Origin: Alphaproteobacteria bacterium | Lineage (GTDB): Bacteria > Pseudomonadota > Alphaproteobacteria > Bin95 | Assembly (NCBI GenBank): GCA_963665325.3 | Contig: OZ224045.1 | Coordinates: 2,176,001 to 2,240,000 of the forward strand | Length of the DNA stretch: 64,000 nucleotides | Reading direction: 5' to 3' | Shown here: positions 1,929 through 7,970 of the stretch, piece after piece | How the letters are laid out: the number at the start of each line of letters is the position of its first letter | Position numbering within the stretch: the first letter of the stretch is position 1 | The notes under the pieces: model-generated | The model's input: only the letters and a program-made list of their open reading frames with translations | Database searches by the model: none | Told to the model about the DNA's origin: nothing | Made by a program: the position numbers and the translations under genes

Positions 1929-3185
1929 CTATTCGAGCGAGATTTCGTAATGCTTGTTGGCGTTCGGGTCCTTCTCGAGGTCGCAGACAGACTGGGTGTC
2001 GGCGGGCTGGACCTGGGAGAACTTCTCCTTGATGACGAACTGCTTGTCCTGGAGGTCCGCCACATAGACGTCCCGGATCGCATGGTGCGTCTTGCGGTCG
2101 ATGGTGACCTTGCCGGAGGGGAATTCGTACTCCTTGCCCGACTCCATCACCTCGATGAGCGCCATGCGGTCGAGGCTGCCTGCGGTCCGCACCGCATCGG
2201 CCCAGATCATCATGCCTTCCCAGGTAAAGGCCGAAAGCTCGGTCAGGAACGGCGTGTCGTCGGGATAGCGTTTCTTGACCGCCTCGACCCAGGCGTTGTT
2301 CATCGGCGAATCGATCTGCGGGTAGTAGCCGTAGCTGGTGATGATGCCGTTGGCGACTTCCGGCTTGATGATCTCGATCTCCGCGCCCGCCGCGCCGAAG
2401 GTCGTGGACGCGATCGGGATTTCCTCCTTCATGCCGCCCGCGGCCCACTGGTTGTAGAAGCCCAGATGGCCGGTTCCGACCAGCACGGACATCACCATGT
2501 CAGGTTTGGCTTCCTGAATCTTCGAGATCGTCGGCCCGAAATTGGTGACGTCCAGCGGGAAGAAGTCGGTGGAGAGCACTTCGCCCCCGTTCTGCTCGAC
2601 ATAGCGCTTCACCCAGGCCGCGGTGATCTGGCCATAGTTGTAGTCCGCGGCAATCGTATAGACCTTCTTGCCCCACAGATTCATCGTGTGCGGCACGAGC
2701 TGCTCGACCGTCTGGGCCGGCGTGGTGCCGAGCGTGATCTCGTTGCGGTCGCAAACGCCGCCTTCGTAGAGCGTGTTGTAGAAGTACAGCGTCTTGAAGC
2801 GGTGGAAGATCGGACGGATCGTCTCCCGGCTCGCGCTGGTGATGCCGCCCATGGCAACCGCCACCTTGTCCTTCAGCGCCAGTTGCGTCGCATATTGCGA
2901 GTAGAGCGACATGTTGGACTGCGGATCGTAAACAACGCCCTTGACCTGCCGGCCGAGCAGGCCGCCCTGCGCGTTGATCTCCTCGATCGCCATCAACATG
3001 ATCTGGTTCATCGGGATGCCGGCGAAATCGATGAAGCCGGACAGGTCGTGCAGGCCGCCGACCAGGATTTCGTCGCCGGCATCGGCCGAGATGGCCGGGA
3101 ACACTGTGGAAAATGCGGCGGCGCCCGCGCCCATTGCCGCGGTTTTCATGAAATCGCGCCGGGATCTTGTGTTCTTGACTGTCAT
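1929..3185 (-). CDS. Urea/amide ABC transporter substrate-binding protein (UrtA/AmiC-like), Tat-exported
   Basis: SRRDFMK twin-arginine signal; GGITSASRETIRP, YFYNTLYEGG and ADYNYG motifs; ATG 3185 with GAGGGAGG RBS. Confidence 0.88.
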   Translation of the reverse strand: MTVKNTRSRRDFMKTAAMGAGAAAFSTVFPAISADAGDEILVGGLHDLSGFIDFAGIPMNQIMLMAIEEINAQGGLLGRQVKGVVYDPQSNMSLYSQYATQLALKDKVAVAMGGITSASRETIRPIFHRFKTLYFYNTLYEGGVCDRNEITLGTTPAQTVEQLVPHTMNLWGKKVYTIAADYNYGQITAAWVKRYVEQNGGEVLSTDFFPLDVTNFGPTISKIQEAKPDMVMSVLVGTGHLGFYNQWAAGGMKEEIPIASTTFGAAGAEIEIIKPEVANGIITSYGYYPQIDSPMNNAWVEAVKKRYPDDTPFLTELSAFTWEGMMIWADAVRTAGSLDRMALIEVMESGKEYEFPSGKVTIDRKTHHAIRDVYVADLQDKQFVIKEKFSQVQPADTQSVCDLEKDPNANKHYEISLE

Positions 3186-3495
3186 CGACGACCTCCCTCG
3201 ATACATGACGGCAAGCGCATCCAGCTAAGAGCGACAGCGATGCACGAGCGCAAGCCTGCCAGATTAAGCCGGGGCAACAAAGACATAATTGGGAAAGCAG
3301 CCCGTGCGGTCTTTCGGATCGCGCGGTATCCGGCTTGCACCGCAGGATCGCCCCGGAGCGGTCGTTCGTCCTCCTCCCTGCGGCGAGATGAGGACGCCAG
3401 GGGCTGGCACAGCCATGCGCCCGGAAATTTGATCTAGCTCAATTTTTGGCGTCGGGGGGCGAAGCGAAGACCGCTTGACCGATGCGCTCCGGCGG

Positions 3496-4710
3496 TTAAC
3501 TGCCGCTAGCCCACCAGTCCCTGGGTCTCGACCGCGTCGCCCGTCCGGACCGATCGTCCAGCCAGAGCGCCGCCCGGCGTAGCGGCGAAAGCGCGAGGCG
3601 TAGCCAAAGCCGGCTGGTCCAGCGGCGGAAGTCCCGGTTGAAGGGGCAAACCCGAAGACAGATAGCGCAGTCTGAGGCGAGCTTGGCCCAATAGCCGAAG
3701 CACTTTTCCGCATCGGACGTCCATTTCACCACGCCCCGGATGGCGGACTGGTTGAGCCGGTCGGCGGTGGGCGGACCGTAGGGCAGGGCTTTCGCCGGAC
3801 AGGCGTCTGCGCAGCGCGTGCAGACGGCGCAGAACTTCGCCACGCCGAATTTGCGCGGTGCGTCATGGGCCAGCGGCAGGTCCGTGAAGATCTTGGAAAA
3901 ACGCAGGCGCGGGCCCGTCTCCGGGGTTATGACGAGTTGGTTGCGGGCGTATTCGCCGAGACCGGCTTTCAGCGCATAGGGAATGGCGAGCGCAGTGTCG
4001 TTCATGGAGGCGACCGCACGGTAGCCGAGCGCCCTGATATAGGCGGCAAGCTGCATGACGATTGCGGCTTCGTGGCTGTACTCCCGCCCGGTCGCAGCGC
4101 CGGCAAGCGCGGAGGGGTAGGTCGCGACAAGCCCCTCGTCCATTTCGTGGCCGAGCACGACGACATGCTCCAGCCCGTCGGGCAGACCCACCGGAGCCTC
4201 CGAGAAGTCCCGCACATCCACCCGCGACTCATAGGTCCAGCGCTCATCGTACTCGGTGATGCCGCACAGGCTTGCGCCGAAGAACCGGGCGACCTTCTTG
4301 ATCTCCGCCGCCATCGCCGCCGGATCGTCAACCGGGAACTGCTCCGCGACGACAGGCGTGTCGTCCGAGATCGCCGCCTGGAAACCCTCCCGCCTGCCTT
4401 GCTCGACATGGCGGTTGGTAATCAGGTCGGAGATCAGCCAGGAGGCGTTCCGGAGCGCGAAATCCCGCTGGTTGAAACCGTCTCCCCGGCGCGCAGTGAA
4501 GTCCGCCCGGTATGAATTGAAGAAGGCGTCCGTTTCCTTCGTGCGCACCCGCTCGTCCCAGAACGCGCGCGTGAAGACATCGTCGATCTGCCGGAAAGGC
4601 GTGAAGTCCGCAGTCGTCTCGATTCCCGCCGCCGCATCGCTTTCGGCGTGGCGTCCCCGCCAGCGAGCGCGGCGTTCTTCGAGGCTCTCCTCGTTTCCGG
4701 GCCAGCTCAT
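3496..4710 (-). CDS. rdhA: Reductive dehalogenase-like protein (cobalamin, two 4Fe-4S clusters)
   Basis: AGLGEYARNQLVITPETGPRLRFSKIFTDLPL; CAVCTRCADACP; KCFGYW...DCAICLRVCPFN; no Tat signal. Confidence 0.8.
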   Translation of the reverse strand: MSWPGNEESLEERRARWRGRHAESDAAAGIETTADFTPFRQIDDVFTRAFWDERVRTKETDAFFNSYRADFTARRGDGFNQRDFALRNASWLISDLITNRHVEQGRREGFQAAISDDTPVVAEQFPVDDPAAMAAEIKKVARFFGASLCGITEYDERWTYESRVDVRDFSEAPVGLPDGLEHVVVLGHEMDEGLVATYPSALAGAATGREYSHEAAIVMQLAAYIRALGYRAVASMNDTALAIPYALKAGLGEYARNQLVITPETGPRLRFSKIFTDLPLAHDAPRKFGVAKFCAVCTRCADACPAKALPYGPPTADRLNQSAIRGVVKWTSDAEKCFGYWAKLASDCAICLRVCPFNRDFRRWTSRLWLRLALSPLRRAALWLDDRSGRATRSRPRDWWASGS

Positions 4711-4743
4711 CGATGCGAGACTACCGCTTTTCCGGTCCGGGCG

Positions 4744-5349
4744 TCAGTGGCCGGTCTTGCGAAACCCCTCTCCTTGCTCGTCGAGCGCTTCCGGCGGCCG
4801 GCCGAGCCATCGACCCGCGACAGCGCGCCAGGTTGCGAGCCGGCTGAAATTAGGAGGATCGGCAAGCGTGTCGTCGTCGTTCAGGAAAGGGCTCGGGAAG
4901 AACACGGTAAGGCCGTTCTCGCCCTTCCCGTTCCATATCTCGAAGCCCCAGGTGAGCGGCCTGGCGTCCCGGTCGAAGCCCCGGAATATCTCGGCCCGCG
5001 AGGGCCGGCGGTGCGCGCGCAGCGCCGGGCCAGTCGGGTCTCCGGGCGAGCCCAGGTTCTCGCCGATGCAAAGGTGGAAATGCCCGCCATTGCCGAACAT
5101 CACCGTCAGGTAGCCATCGAAGAGGCTTATCCGCGTCGGTGCGCCGGGACATTTCCACTCCCAGGCGGCGCCCTGGATCATCGGGCCGAGGCGGATGCCC
5201 CGCCAGTGGTTCTCGAACAGGTCGCGGAGGAAGGCCTCCAGGACGGATTCTTCCAGCGGCAGTGCCCAGATTTCGCGCGCGAGCGTCCCGTTCTCGCGGT
5301 ACTGCCGTTCGTCCGGTTCGGACGGAATCTCTCGGTCCGTGTCCTTCAT
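4744..5349 (-). CDS. Hypothetical protein, possible HutX/ChuX-like fold
   Basis: ATG 5349 with GAGGTGG RBS; 201 aa globular; GYLTV...HFHL and NGKGENGLTVFF motifs; ends 33 bp before rdhA. Confidence 0.7.
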   Translation of the reverse strand: MKDTDREIPSEPDERQYRENGTLAREIWALPLEESVLEAFLRDLFENHWRGIRLGPMIQGAAWEWKCPGAPTRISLFDGYLTVMFGNGGHFHLCIGENLGSPGDPTGPALRAHRRPSRAEIFRGFDRDARPLTWGFEIWNGKGENGLTVFFPSPFLNDDDTLADPPNFSRLATWRAVAGRWLGRPPEALDEQGEGFRKTGH

Positions 5350-5444
5350 GTCTTCCACCTCCCGGCACCTCAAGTCTGTGCGAAGGTTCCGCCTGCGGCA
5401 ACGCTCCGGTTCCGTTGCCGGGCCGGCCGTGGAAGGGTGGGGCC

Positions 5445-6356
5445 ATGGGCGCATTTCTCGAAGTGGCGCTGCCGGCTTTCCTGCTGGTCTTCGCCGGGAT
5501 GGCCGCGGCACGCGCAGGCTGGATCGACGAGGCGGGCGCGAAGGGTCTGAACGCTTTCGTCTATTACCTCGCCATGCCGGCCGCGCTCTTCCGTGCGGCC
5601 TCGGAAGGCGCGCTGCTTCAGGGTTTCGACTGGCGCCTCGTGGCCGCCTATTTCGGTCCGACGCTGGTCCTGCTGGCGGCCGTCGAGGCGCTCGGCCGAC
5701 GGAAACCGGCGGAGGAGCGGGCGCTCACCGGCATGGGCGCCTGTTTTTCCAACAATGTCTTTCTCGGCATGCCGGTGATCGTGGCGCATATGGGGTCGGC
5801 TGCGGCCGGCCCGATGACGGTGATCATCGCGGGCACCACGGTCCTGTTCATCGGCCTGCCCGTGCTGCGGATCGAGATGGCGAGAGGTAGTGGGGGAGCT
5901 GTGGCGGCTGCACTCGGGCGCGCGCTCGCCAATCCGCTCCTGGTCGCAATTGCGCTCGGCACGCTCTGGGCGTCGGTATCCTGGCGCCTGCCGGGGCCGG
6001 TCAGTGTAGCGGTGGACCTGCTGGCTGCGGCATCCGCGCCAGCCGCGCTTGCCGGACTGGGCGCGGCGTTGGCGGGATACCGCATCGCCGGGGACCTCCG
6101 GGACAGCACTGCGCTCTGCGGGCTCAAGCTGCTCGCGCATCCGGTCATGGTGTGGTTTGCGGCGGGCGCAGTCGGGCTCGGCGAGTTCGAACGGGCGGTC
6201 GCGGTGCTGGCGTCGGCCATGCCGGTCGGCGCCAATGTGTTCGTGTTGGCGCAGCATTACGGCATCTACGAGCGCCGGGCCTCGGCCGCAGTGGTGCTCT
6301 CGACCCTCGCCGCCATGCCGCTTGCGGCCCTGCTGATGACGGTCTTCCACTCGTGA
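5445..6356 (+). CDS. AEC (auxin efflux carrier) family transporter
   Basis: FVYYLAMPAALF, SNNVFLGMP, NPLL, KLLAHP and AMPVGANVF motifs. Confidence 0.9.
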   Translation: MGAFLEVALPAFLLVFAGMAAARAGWIDEAGAKGLNAFVYYLAMPAALFRAASEGALLQGFDWRLVAAYFGPTLVLLAAVEALGRRKPAEERALTGMGACFSNNVFLGMPVIVAHMGSAAAGPMTVIIAGTTVLFIGLPVLRIEMARGSGGAVAAALGRALANPLLVAIALGTLWASVSWRLPGPVSVAVDLLAAASAPAALAGLGAALAGYRIAGDLRDSTALCGLKLLAHPVMVWFAAGAVGLGEFERAVAVLASAMPVGANVFVLAQHYGIYERRASAAVVLSTLAAMPLAALLMTVFHS

Positions 6357-6363
6357 GGCGGCC

Positions 6364-7212
6364 TTAGGCGCGCTGGCGGATGAGCCAGACGCCGATCATG
6401 GTCAGCGCAAAGCCGGGCCACATGGCTCCCGGCAGGTCTTCGCCGAGAAAGACCCATGCGAGCAGCGCGGTCACTCCGGGCGTCAGGTAGAAATTCGACG
6501 CTACCCGGCCTGCCTCTCCGTGGCGCAGCATGTAGAGCAGCAGGCCCATGGCGCCGAGCGAAACGCCGAAGGTGAGATAGGCGAGCGAGGCGACCATGCC
6601 CGGCGTCCAGACGGCGTGCGGCGCCTCGAACGCCCAGGTGAAAGCCCATGCCGTGGCCGCCGCCGCCGCGAGCTGCACGCAGTTGGCGCCGATGAGCGGC
6701 GCGTCCCGGCAGAAGCGCGCGTGGTAGAGTGTGCCGGCGGTGAGCGCGGCGATGGAACCGATTGCCCAGGCGATGCCGGCCGGGCGGCCGAGGTCGAAGG
6801 CGCCGATGCCCGCGACCAGCGCAACGCCCCCTGTACCCAGCAGGAAGCCCGCCCATTGCCGGCCCCGGAAGCGTTCGCCCAGCAGCGGCCCGGCAACTAG
6901 CGCGGTCGCGATCGGGTGAAGCGCGCCCATGAGCGCCATGGTCGCGCCCCGGATCTCCGTCATGGCGACATAGGCCGCGCCCAGATAGCAGGCATTGATG
7001 ATTGCGCCCGACAGCCCGAGATGGACGATTTCCGCGACCGTCGGCCGCCAGTCCCTGATCAGGAAACCCGCCACCGCTGCCAGCACGGCCGCCGCAATGG
7101 TGAAGCGGATCGCCAGGAAATAGAACGGCGTGATATCGGGCAGTCCGGCGCGGACCGCGACGAAGGCGCCGCTCCAGATCAGGACGAAGAGAAACGGGGC
7201 GAAGCGGGTCAG
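6364..7212 (-). CDS. DMT/EamA family transporter (probable CTG start)
   Basis: Frame extends upstream of track start: LTRFAPFLFVLIWSGAFVA...FLAIRF; CTG overlaps upstream TGA. Confidence 0.85.
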   Translation of the reverse strand: MTRFAPFLFVLIWSGAFVAVRAGLPDITPFYFLAIRFTIAAAVLAAVAGFLIRDWRPTVAEIVHLGLSGAIINACYLGAAYVAMTEIRGATMALMGALHPIATALVAGPLLGERFRGRQWAGFLLGTGGVALVAGIGAFDLGRPAGIAWAIGSIAALTAGTLYHARFCRDAPLIGANCVQLAAAAATAWAFTWAFEAPHAVWTPGMVASLAYLTFGVSLGAMGLLLYMLRHGEAGRVASNFYLTPGVTALLAWVFLGEDLPGAMWPGFALTMIGVWLIRQRA

Positions 7213-7970
7213 CTTGCGCTGTCCTCGATCACCTCGCCGCCGAGTTCCTCGACGAAAGCATGGATTTCGGCTGCCGCTTCATCGATGCGTGCACGGTCCG
7301 CCCCACGCACGACCAGCGCCACGCCGGTGCCCTTGTCGGTGTTGTAGAAGGGGTAGGAGCCGAGATCGAGCTCCGGGAAGCGCTGCTGCACGGCGCCCAG
7401 GCCTCTCGCCAGCACGCCTTCCACCAGCCGGGTCGAGATCGACCGGGAATGGATCACGGTACCGCGTCGGAGCGAAGGTTTCGCGACCTCGAACATGGAC
7501 TGCATGATCTGCGGCACGCCGGCGAACACGAACACGTTCTCCATGCGGAAGCCGGGTGCGATGGACAGGGAGTTGTCCACGAGTTCGGCGCCGACCGGTG
7601 TAATCGTCATGCGCTTGCGCGCCTCGGTGAACTCCTGGCCGCGCCGGTCGTACCATTCGGCCATCCGGCGGTAGCTCTCCGGGTGGTAGTGCCATTCGGC
7701 GTCGAAGGCGGCGGCGATGGATTCCGGCGTGATGTCGTCATGGGTCGGCCCGATGCCGCCCGTGGTGAACACATAGTCGAACCGGGCGCGGAGCGCGTTG
7801 ACCGCCTCGACGATCTCCTCGCGGATGTCGGGCACGATGCGCACCTCCGCGAGCTGGATACCGATCTCGTTCAGGCCGTTGCCGAGAAAGGCGATGTTCC
7901 TGTCCTGCGTGCGGCCCGAGAGGATCTCGTTGCCGATAATGCAGAGCGCGGCGGTAACCGTAGCGGCCAT
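7209..7970 (-). CDS. CinA-like competence/damage-inducible protein (molybdopterin-binding domain)
   Basis: IIGNEILSGRTQDRN, TTGGIGPTHDDIT and AGVP motifs. Confidence 0.9.
   Translation of the reverse strand: MAATVTAALCIIGNEILSGRTQDRNIAFLGNGLNEIGIQLAEVRIVPDIREEIVEAVNALRARFDYVFTTGGIGPTHDDITPESIAAAFDAEWHYHPESYRRMAEWYDRRGQEFTEARKRMTITPVGAELVDNSLSIAPGFRMENVFVFAGVPQIMQSMFEVAKPSLRRGTVIHSRSISTRLVEGVLARGLGAVQQRFPELDLGSYPFYNTDKGTGVALVVRGADRARIDEAAAEIHAFVEELGGEVIEDSAS

Follow-up and report, generated by a model that had tools for sequence, protein, structure and literature searches.

The window analysed here, a stretch of 64,000 nucleotides (nt) from contig OZ224045.1 of an alphaproteobacterium, carries on its reverse strand a gene for a small protein of the Pfam family DUF7676, directly followed by a gene for a reductive dehalogenase homologue (RdhA). 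The DUF7676 gene (4744..5349, reverse strand) runs from an ATG at 5349 to a TGA stop at 4746-4744 and codes for a protein of 201 residues (P0001). It is separated from rdhA (3496..4710, reverse strand, ATG at 4710), which codes for a cytoplasmic RdhA homologue of 404 residues (P0002), by a spacer of exactly 33 nt (4711..4743, reverse strand) with neither a predicted terminator nor a clear Shine-Dalgarno sequence. An earlier sequence-only reading of this DNA had located the open reading frame, its common orientation with rdhA and the length of the spacer correctly, and the motif strings that it quoted (IQGAAWEWKCP, GYLTV, GHFHL, WGFEIWNGKGENGLTVFF and RLATW) are all found in the P0001 translation. 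It had further proposed a HutX/ChuX-like protein, co-transcribed with the dehalogenase gene, that could act as a corrinoid chaperone or maturation factor for a non-respiratory dehalogenase.

The start of the DUF7676 gene is marked by a GGAGG Shine-Dalgarno sequence (5358..5362, reverse strand) located 8 nt 5' of the ATG at 5349. An alternative GTG start at 5511 is possible, but the ATG is preferred because of the position of GGAGG and because the homologues are 195-209 residues long and share the same start. The N-terminus of P0001 is hydrophilic and devoid of a signal peptide, which indicates a cytoplasmic protein. A chance frame in this 66%-GC DNA was ruled out by the Pfam match and by the homologues of P0001.

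P0001 matches DUF7676 (PF24724) with 211.9 bits (E 5e-63, model positions 4-166 of 166, gathering cut-off 27) and no other family in the Pfam scan, and NCBIfam holds no model for DUF7676. The family is already catalogued as one of unknown function. It is small, with 281 representatives at 50% identity found at E <= 0.001 among 1.84 billion proteins; at the same threshold, 176 homologues of P0001 were retained among 434 scored candidates. A genome-wide search identified a single copy (212.1 bits) in the window's genome (G000). In an even sample of the class, DUF7676 is encoded by 16 of 401 genomes and, since the family is this uncommon, any role that it plays would be an accessory one.

Fold and conserved residues of DUF7676

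In a wide alignment reaching down to 26% identity, G60 is invariant, G55, E64, P71, G79, T82, H92, C94, N140, G141 and L171 are kept in at least 90% of the rows, and H90 is kept in most of them. The conserved residues of the family (including G60, E64, H90, H92, C94, N140 and G141) are all intact in P0001. In the AlphaFold2 model, H90, H92 and C94 (HxHxC) alternate along one predicted beta-strand and would therefore face one side of the sheet.

The AlphaFold2 model of P0001, built from a 35-row alignment, has a mean pLDDT of 92.3 and a pTM of 0.88. Its top Foldseek matches are ChuX (6u9j, 2ovi), HutX (5exv), 2ph0, 2hqv, 3fm2, HemS, PhuS and ChuS, with a TM-score of about 0.55 on the target. 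ChuX, HutX, 2ph0, 2hqv and 3fm2 have a probability of 1.00, and the HemS, PhuS and ChuS rows have 0.97-1.00; the value is 1.00 for all rows as far as an E-value of 0.022 and 0.97-0.99 for the weaker rows of PhuS, HemS and ChuS. With VIA-align, the first 15 rows all belong to the ChuX/HutX/HemS superfamily (Z 10.3-5.8, 113-133 aligned residues, root-mean-square deviation 2.9-3.7) and the best unrelated entry reaches only Z 3.8. The ESM Atlas neighbours include clusters mixing ChuX_HutX, LFE_1968-like and DUF7676 members, and one DUF7676 member matches the LFE_1968-like family PF22684 weakly (25.3 bits, below the cut-off of 27). On the predicted model, DUF7676 is thus a divergent branch of the ChuX/HutX/HemS fold, and we consider this assignment sound.

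The primary sequences give a different picture. P0001 does not match PF06228 (ChuX_HutX) at E <= 1, and no ChuX or HutX chain was matched by DUF7676 in phmmer and profile searches of the PDB sequences. An hhalign comparison of the DUF7676 alignment with a 20-sequence ChuX_HutX alignment returned a probability of 0.3%, and the pairing was confined to the hairpin FEIWNGKGENGLTVFFP, set against LQFFDGQGRAIHKVFLR, which corresponds to the final element of the pattern given in the sequence-only reading. The HutX/ChuX resemblance claimed there was therefore borne out at the level of the fold, for which AlphaFold combined with Foldseek and VIA-align did retrieve ChuX/HutX/HemS structures, whereas the sequence pattern given there is not statistically supported.

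The closest characterized relatives in structure are ChuX from E. coli O157:H7 (2ovi, 6u9j) and HutX from Vibrio cholerae (5exv), both of PF06228, which like DUF7676 are single-domain proteins of alpha+beta fold of about 160-200 residues (VIA-align Z 10.1, 10.0 and 9.5). P0001 differs from them by the lack of detectable sequence homology and by a length about 40 residues above that of the matched chains, and the conserved H-x-H-x-C strand and E64 are features of DUF7676 alone. Each half of HemS, PhuS and ChuS (2j0p, 4imh, 1u9t) adopts the same fold (Z 7.4-5.8); these proteins are cytoplasmic heme chaperones or degraders that receive heme from an inner-membrane ABC importer. They are tandem duplications of about 340 residues, whereas DUF7676 consists of a single domain. 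The fold is also found in two groups of unknown function, the LFE_1968-like family (PF22684; 3na2, Z 9.8) and the structural-genomics proteins 2hqv, 2ph0 and 3fm2 (Z 10.3, 9.8 and 8.5).

Gene context in other genomes

The context of DUF7676 genes was compared at 19 reference-genome loci, at 15 class-sample loci from 14 genomes and at the best 80 of 301 metagenome relatives; from the class sample, one hit located on a contig of 1.9 kb and two that fell below the cut-off were left out. The usual order is a cobalamin riboswitch, a btuB-like TonB-dependent receptor gene, DUF7676 and btuF/btuC/btuD-like genes, the latter often followed by cbiZ, cobD, cobQ, DUF1636 or DUF6925. At six of the 19 reference loci (L013-L018), the riboswitch RF00174 (120-135 bits) precedes a TonB-dependent receptor and then DUF7676, with Peripla_BP_2/FecCD-type genes 3' of DUF7676 in five of the six (L013-L017). 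L013 adds an ABC ATPase, CbiZ and DUF6925, and L015 adds an ABC ATPase and DUF6925; the context of L014 and L018 was classed by tblastn. DUF7676 lies directly 3' of cobQ at two more reference loci (L011, L019), and at eight (L001-L008, with 82% identity to P0001 or more) RdhA follows DUF7676 after 33-36 nt.

The other two samples show the same arrangement. Riboswitch, receptor and DUF7676 lie on one strand at 9 of the 15 class-sample loci, and at a tenth (L053) the receptor is cut by the contig end and FecCD/ABC genes are located downstream. The remaining five comprise two genes 3' of glnA and others beside a homocysteine S-methyltransferase-domain gene, a GntR regulator and a fructose-bisphosphate aldolase. 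Among the 80 metagenome loci, at least one B12 marker was detected by tblastn or nhmmer in 42, the receptor being directly upstream of DUF7676 in 29 and a riboswitch being found with the nhmmer profile in 22; 17 carry no marker although 2.5 kb or more of flanking sequence is available on one side, and another 20 are too short for a verdict.

The transporters encoded in these operons are Btu-like. All eight receptors tested score best to the TonB-dependent vitamin B12 receptor model TIGR01779 (221-344 bits, short of its strict cut-off of 599.7), the permease matches BtuC best and the best match of the ATPase is 'corrinoid ABC transporter ATPase'. The operon at L050 runs on with DUF1636, CobD (TIGR01140, 328 bits for a cut-off of 290.55) and CobQ. 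In most lineages, DUF7676 thus belongs to the cobalamin regulon.

Another family whose function is unknown, DUF6925 (PF21973, E about 1e-124), is present in B12-riboswitch btu operons, usually right 3' of cbiZ (L013:9818-10816 and L015:9676-10860; also L103, L109, L121 and L152). NCBIfam holds no model for it, and an AlphaFold model built from 6 sequences has a pLDDT of 59, which is insufficient for fold comparison.

DUF7676 shares its fold with heme carriers. P0001 might accordingly be an ordinary heme-binding protein of the ChuX/HutX type whose position beside RdhA or btu genes is incidental, an explanation that we regard as very improbable. The chuX and hutX genes lie in operons for heme utilisation, together with chuW/hutW and hutZ (PMC6395792; PMC6775658). 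DUF7676 resembles ChuX and HutX in being a small cytoplasmic protein encoded within a TonB-dependent receptor and ABC importer operon for a metal-tetrapyrrole. However, a heme uptake or utilisation setting was not encountered at the DUF7676 loci, whose neighbours are cobalamin riboswitches, BtuB/BtuFCD-like genes, cbiZ, cobQ, cobD or RdhA: the operons are under cobalamin riboswitches and not under heme or iron control, and cobalamin uptake genes, CbiZ and Cob enzymes stand where ChuX and HutX have heme genes. The absence of a PF06228 sequence match also speaks against a heme carrier. In addition, three genomes (G041, G051, G166) hold DUF7676 together with a separate two-domain HemS-type gene; DUF7676 is therefore not their heme carrier, and separate roles of the two proteins are implied. 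As for the window itself, the sequence-only reading had noted that no heme-uptake genes are present. This was checked in part and stands for PF06228, without a match in the whole genome, and for a btuB-type receptor, which tblastn did not find in the genome either.

The link with RdhA

P0002 passes the NCBIfam model TIGR02486 'reductive dehalogenase' (169.8 bits, cut-off 160.35) and matches PceA (8q4h, E 5.5e-49), NpRdhA (4ras, E 6.8e-30) and, more weakly, QueG. The eight invariant cysteines for two 4Fe-4S clusters are present (C294, C297, C300, C304, C337, C348, C351 and C355). By eye, the N-terminus MSWPGNEESLEERRARWRGRHAESD has no hydrophobic stretch and no visible Tat-type signal. The gene next downstream (1929-3206, 290 nt away) codes for a Leu/Ile/Val-type solute-binding protein (Peripla_BP_5/6), with permease open reading frames further on, and not for rdhB, although no search aimed at rdhB was made. 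The cytoplasmic, non-respiratory RdhA of the sequence-only reading agrees with the lack of a visible Tat signal and with a downstream neighbour other than the rdhB anchor. The RdhA family to which P0002 belongs is large, and Rhodobacterales contain members of it that show about 70% identity.

On the other side of the DUF7676 gene, a divergent gene (5445..6356, forward strand) codes for a membrane transporter of the auxin-efflux-carrier type (Mem_trans, 303 residues, PF03547 E 1.5e-30). The transporter is found beside DUF7676-RdhA at nine of nine related loci (L001-L008 and L099; 87-99.7% identity). The Mem_trans-DUF7676-RdhA block, with a spacer of 33-36 nt, is kept in all nine of these loci while the genes after rdhA differ, which supports, with moderate strength, a functional unit at this place in close relatives. 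Further along the window, positions 6364-7086 and 7209-7970 hold an EamA transporter and a MoCF_biosynth/FAD-synthase-middle-domain protein; these flanking genes are ordinary.

This conservation, the common strand, the 33-nt spacer and the absence of a predicted terminator are what can be said for the proposal that DUF7676 serves a non-respiratory RdhA exclusively, as chaperone or maturation factor for its corrinoid loading, and is co-transcribed with it, together with the well-established corrinoid requirement of RdhA and the ties of DUF7676 to B12 elsewhere. The distribution of the pair makes such a dedicated function unlikely. In a maximum-likelihood tree of 113 DUF7676 rows (quick search, SH-aLRT support), the 10 rows linked to RdhA group together in a single clade with a support of 97. 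Joined by the cobQ-linked L011 and the unlinked L009, L010 and L012, they make up a larger clade of 14 rows, which lies in turn inside a 51-row clade of mostly btu-linked rows. This nesting indicates that the DUF7676-RdhA adjacency arose once, from a btu/cob-linked ancestor. Co-occurrence of DUF7676 with rdhA across independent lineages was not observed in the tree, the linkage being confined to this one clade, and the single RdhA-linked locus among the 80 metagenome loci (L099, 96% identical) belongs to the window's own lineage.

The RdhA side of the comparison leads to the same result. In the class sample, RdhA homologues (E <= 1e-40) occupy 25 places in 16 of 401 genomes. Of these places, 24 lie in the 15 genomes other than the window's, and no DUF7676 gene is located within 1.5 kb of any of them. 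One of these genomes (G369, 97% complete) encodes a 91%-identical RdhA ortholog, with a prephenate dehydrogenase gene upstream; the Mem_trans transporter is absent from this locus and the genome has no DUF7676 match. In another (G001), DUF7676 and RdhA are both present but on different contigs. A DNA contig of a related organism, assembled from one public run, matches rdhA with 24 differences over 291 nt and diverges exactly at the start codon at 4710. The window's lineage therefore occurs together with relatives in which another neighbour precedes rdhA, and the divergence marks a boundary at the start of rdhA.

Co-transcription of the pair does not find support in the sequence upstream of rdhA. 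A -10-like hexamer TAGTCT (4723-4718, reverse strand) lies 7 nt 5' of the rdhA ATG, and a -35-like CTGACG (4742..4747, reverse strand) precedes TAGTCT by 18 nt and overlaps with the stop codon of DUF7676. By inspection, the arrangement TGAC-N18-TAGnCT-N7-ATG is kept before rdhA in L001-L008 and L099, with the hexamer variants TAATCT, TAGGCT and TAGACT. It is also present at G369, where the upstream gene differs and DUF7676 is absent. The counterpart in L056 is TTGCCG-N17-TAGCGT-N6-ATG, and a motif site at the rdhA start was noted in L055 as well. TGAC-N18-TAGnCT is thus a candidate promoter of rdhA itself, possibly giving a leaderless mRNA, and since the motif is conserved with and without DUF7676, independent transcription of rdhA is suggested. 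A promoter scan of 3200-5700 returned no promoter-like site at its threshold. The terminator scan of the same interval gave one terminator-like site, inside rdhA, which is fewer than in shuffled sequences, and none in the spacer, where an inverted-repeat search did not find anything either. With neither terminator nor hairpin predicted in the spacer, read-through from DUF7676 into rdhA is possible. The only public RNA-library run (share 0.05) contributed one 215-nt contig over 3437-3651, at the 3' end of rdhA; it leaves the junction and DUF7676 uncovered, and such contigs cannot show transcript ends.

Organohalide respirers possess RdhA accessory proteins, namely the trigger-factor-like chaperone PceT/RdhT and the anchor RdhB, as in the pceABCT operon. 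DUF7676 resembles them as the product of a small gene adjoining rdhA, those genes being thought to aid maturation. It differs in matching PF24724 only, in being absent from the 24 other RdhA loci and in accompanying an RdhA with neither a visible Tat signal nor rdhB as its downstream neighbour. A dedicated RdhA chaperone is possible for the RdhA-linked clade but is not a property of the family. Of the sequence-only proposal, the connection with corrinoids has gained support from the btuB-DUF7676-btuFCD operons and from cbiZ, cobQ and cobD in other genomes, so that homologues are indeed linked to B12 genes. The maturation factor reserved for RdhA has not, the rdhA link being restricted to a clade of single origin and missing from the other RdhA loci, including that of the G369 ortholog. 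Nor has co-transcription, given the conserved promoter-like motif that rdhA keeps where DUF7676 is absent.

Possible corrinoid carriage or cobalt handling

By analogy with ChuX, HutX and HemS, which take up imported heme in the cytoplasm, and on account of its cobalamin-regulon context, DUF7676 may be a cytoplasmic protein of the B12 regulon that binds corrinoids to carry or process them and that lies next to RdhA in this lineage. This is the explanation that we favour, with a confidence slightly better than even. Imported corrinoid released by BtuCD would be bound by DUF7676 in the cytoplasm, where the protein would hold or process it, the cobalt being possibly ligated by the histidines or the cysteine of the H90-x-H92-x-C94 strand. 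The corrinoid would then pass to salvage enzymes or to B12-dependent enzymes. Cobalamin handlers of this kind are known in human CblC/MMACHC and bacterial BtuM, which take newly arrived cobalamin, bind it base-off via a protein ligand and process it or pass it on. The role proposed for DUF7676 is alike but the folds are unrelated.

In the window's lineage, the DUF7676 gene would have left the btu operon to sit between the divergent transporter gene and the gene of a cytoplasmic RdhA. DUF7676 may supply corrinoid to the adjacent RdhA, which would represent a lineage-specific recruitment and not the function of the family. The window's genome (5.58 Mb, 100% complete) has cobQ and a second RdhA paralogue (32% identity). 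There, DUF7676 would serve corrinoid that is made internally or imported otherwise.

Several observations weigh against a corrinoid carrier. The window has no Rfam hit and hence no cobalamin riboswitch, and none was found in its genome among the 150 of 452 first-look candidates that were scored. A tblastn search of the genome revealed no btuB-type receptor, cbiZ or DUF6925, so that the DUF7676 gene is detached from uptake here. Sequence homology to ChuX/HutX was undetectable by Pfam, by PDB sequence and profile searches and by hhalign. In other genomes, B12 genes are missing from five of 15 class-sample loci, from three of 19 reference loci (L009, L010, L012) and from 17 of 60 informative metagenome loci, including a 19-row clade. 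The counts of linked loci are not independent events either, as some loci recur between samples with identical tree rows and relatives share synteny. Finally, the HxHxC motif and the links with nitrile-hydratase accessory proteins described below fit a metal-ion site equally well.

These links emerged from a domain scan in which two of 148 DUF7676 representatives are fused to a nitrile-hydratase accessory domain (P0238, TIGR03889 47.3 bits for a cut-off of 46; P0147, 44.7 bits). At a further locus (L132:90-1764), the gene order is nitrile hydratase beta (TIGR03888, 161 bits), accessory protein (53.9 bits) and DUF7676. No other locus has nitrile hydratase genes beside DUF7676 according to tblastn of all loci collected, 114 of them with DUF7676. 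The window's genome has nitrile hydratase beta and accessory genes about 323 kb from DUF7676, unlinked to it. The accessory link is an unexplained tie of this fold to a non-corrin cobalt enzyme. Among the 148 representatives, one (P0164) is fused to a thioredoxin-like 2Fe-2S ferredoxin and another to NHL repeats.

DUF1636, a thioredoxin-like metal-binding family, recurs in btuB-DUF7676-btuFCD-cobD-cobQ operons (L050:11182-11580; also L108, L109, L116, L119, L139 and L178). Together with the 2Fe-2S fusion, this recurrence hints at a redox step. At L044:10641-11138, two cobalamin riboswitches stand back to back on opposite strands; one heads the receptor-DUF7676 genes and the other the cobalt uptake pair DUF4198 and CbiM.

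The main rival is consequently a cobalt chaperone on a ChuX-like scaffold, which would bind Co(II) or remove cobalt from imported corrinoids and pass it to cobalt-requiring proteins. We hold it to be a minority possibility, although one to be taken into account. It would explain the nitrile-hydratase accessory fusions and the gene order at L132, the conservation of H90, H92, C94 and E64, which are residues of the metal-binding kind, the second divergent riboswitch on DUF4198-CbiM at L044, and the 2Fe-2S ferredoxin fusion with DUF1636 in several operons. Cobalt transporters are among the known targets of B12 riboswitches. In Methylobacterium extorquens, cobalt can be taken up by way of TonB-dependent receptors (PMC2773004). 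On the other hand, all characterized proteins of this fold bind tetrapyrroles, judging from the titles of the matched structure entries. The usual partners of DUF7676, namely BtuFCD-type importers (Peripla_BP_2, FecCD, ABC) and cbiZ, act on corrinoids and not on free ions, and the nitrile hydratase link is rare, with one locus of the 114 and two of the 148 representatives.

In a more far-reaching scheme, DUF7676 would be the corrinoid counterpart of the heme-processing proteins HemS, ChuS and HutX, and imported corrinoids, inactive analogues among them, would be delivered to it in the cytoplasm. Using electrons supplied by a 2Fe-2S ferredoxin or DUF1636, it would either strip the upper ligand, readying the cofactor for enzymes such as RdhA, or open or empty the ring, freeing cobalt for non-corrin cobalt enzymes, of which nitrile hydratase is one. 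We consider this scheme improbable.

In the literature searched, none of the papers listed mentions DUF7676 or links a ChuX-type fold to B12 uptake; most subscription journals lay outside the search, so that an earlier description is possible. The handling of cobalamin in bacteria is poorly understood for the stage at which it passes from the inner-membrane importer to the enzymes that require it, and DUF7676 provides a concrete candidate protein for that stage. If DUF7676 binds corrinoids, the ChuX/HutX/HemS fold extends from heme to a second class of metal-tetrapyrroles. The protein could then aid the heterologous production of corrinoid enzymes, among them reductive dehalogenases, for which the loading of the cofactor is reported to be limiting (bioRxiv 10.1101/2021.10.06.463429). 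If DUF7676 handles cobalt instead, it bears on the supply of this metal to B12 and to nitrile hydratase. Should the trafficking or cobalt-salvage reading be true, DUF7676 would be the first case in bacteria of a heme-carrier fold that is used in the cytoplasm to traffic B12 or to salvage cobalt.

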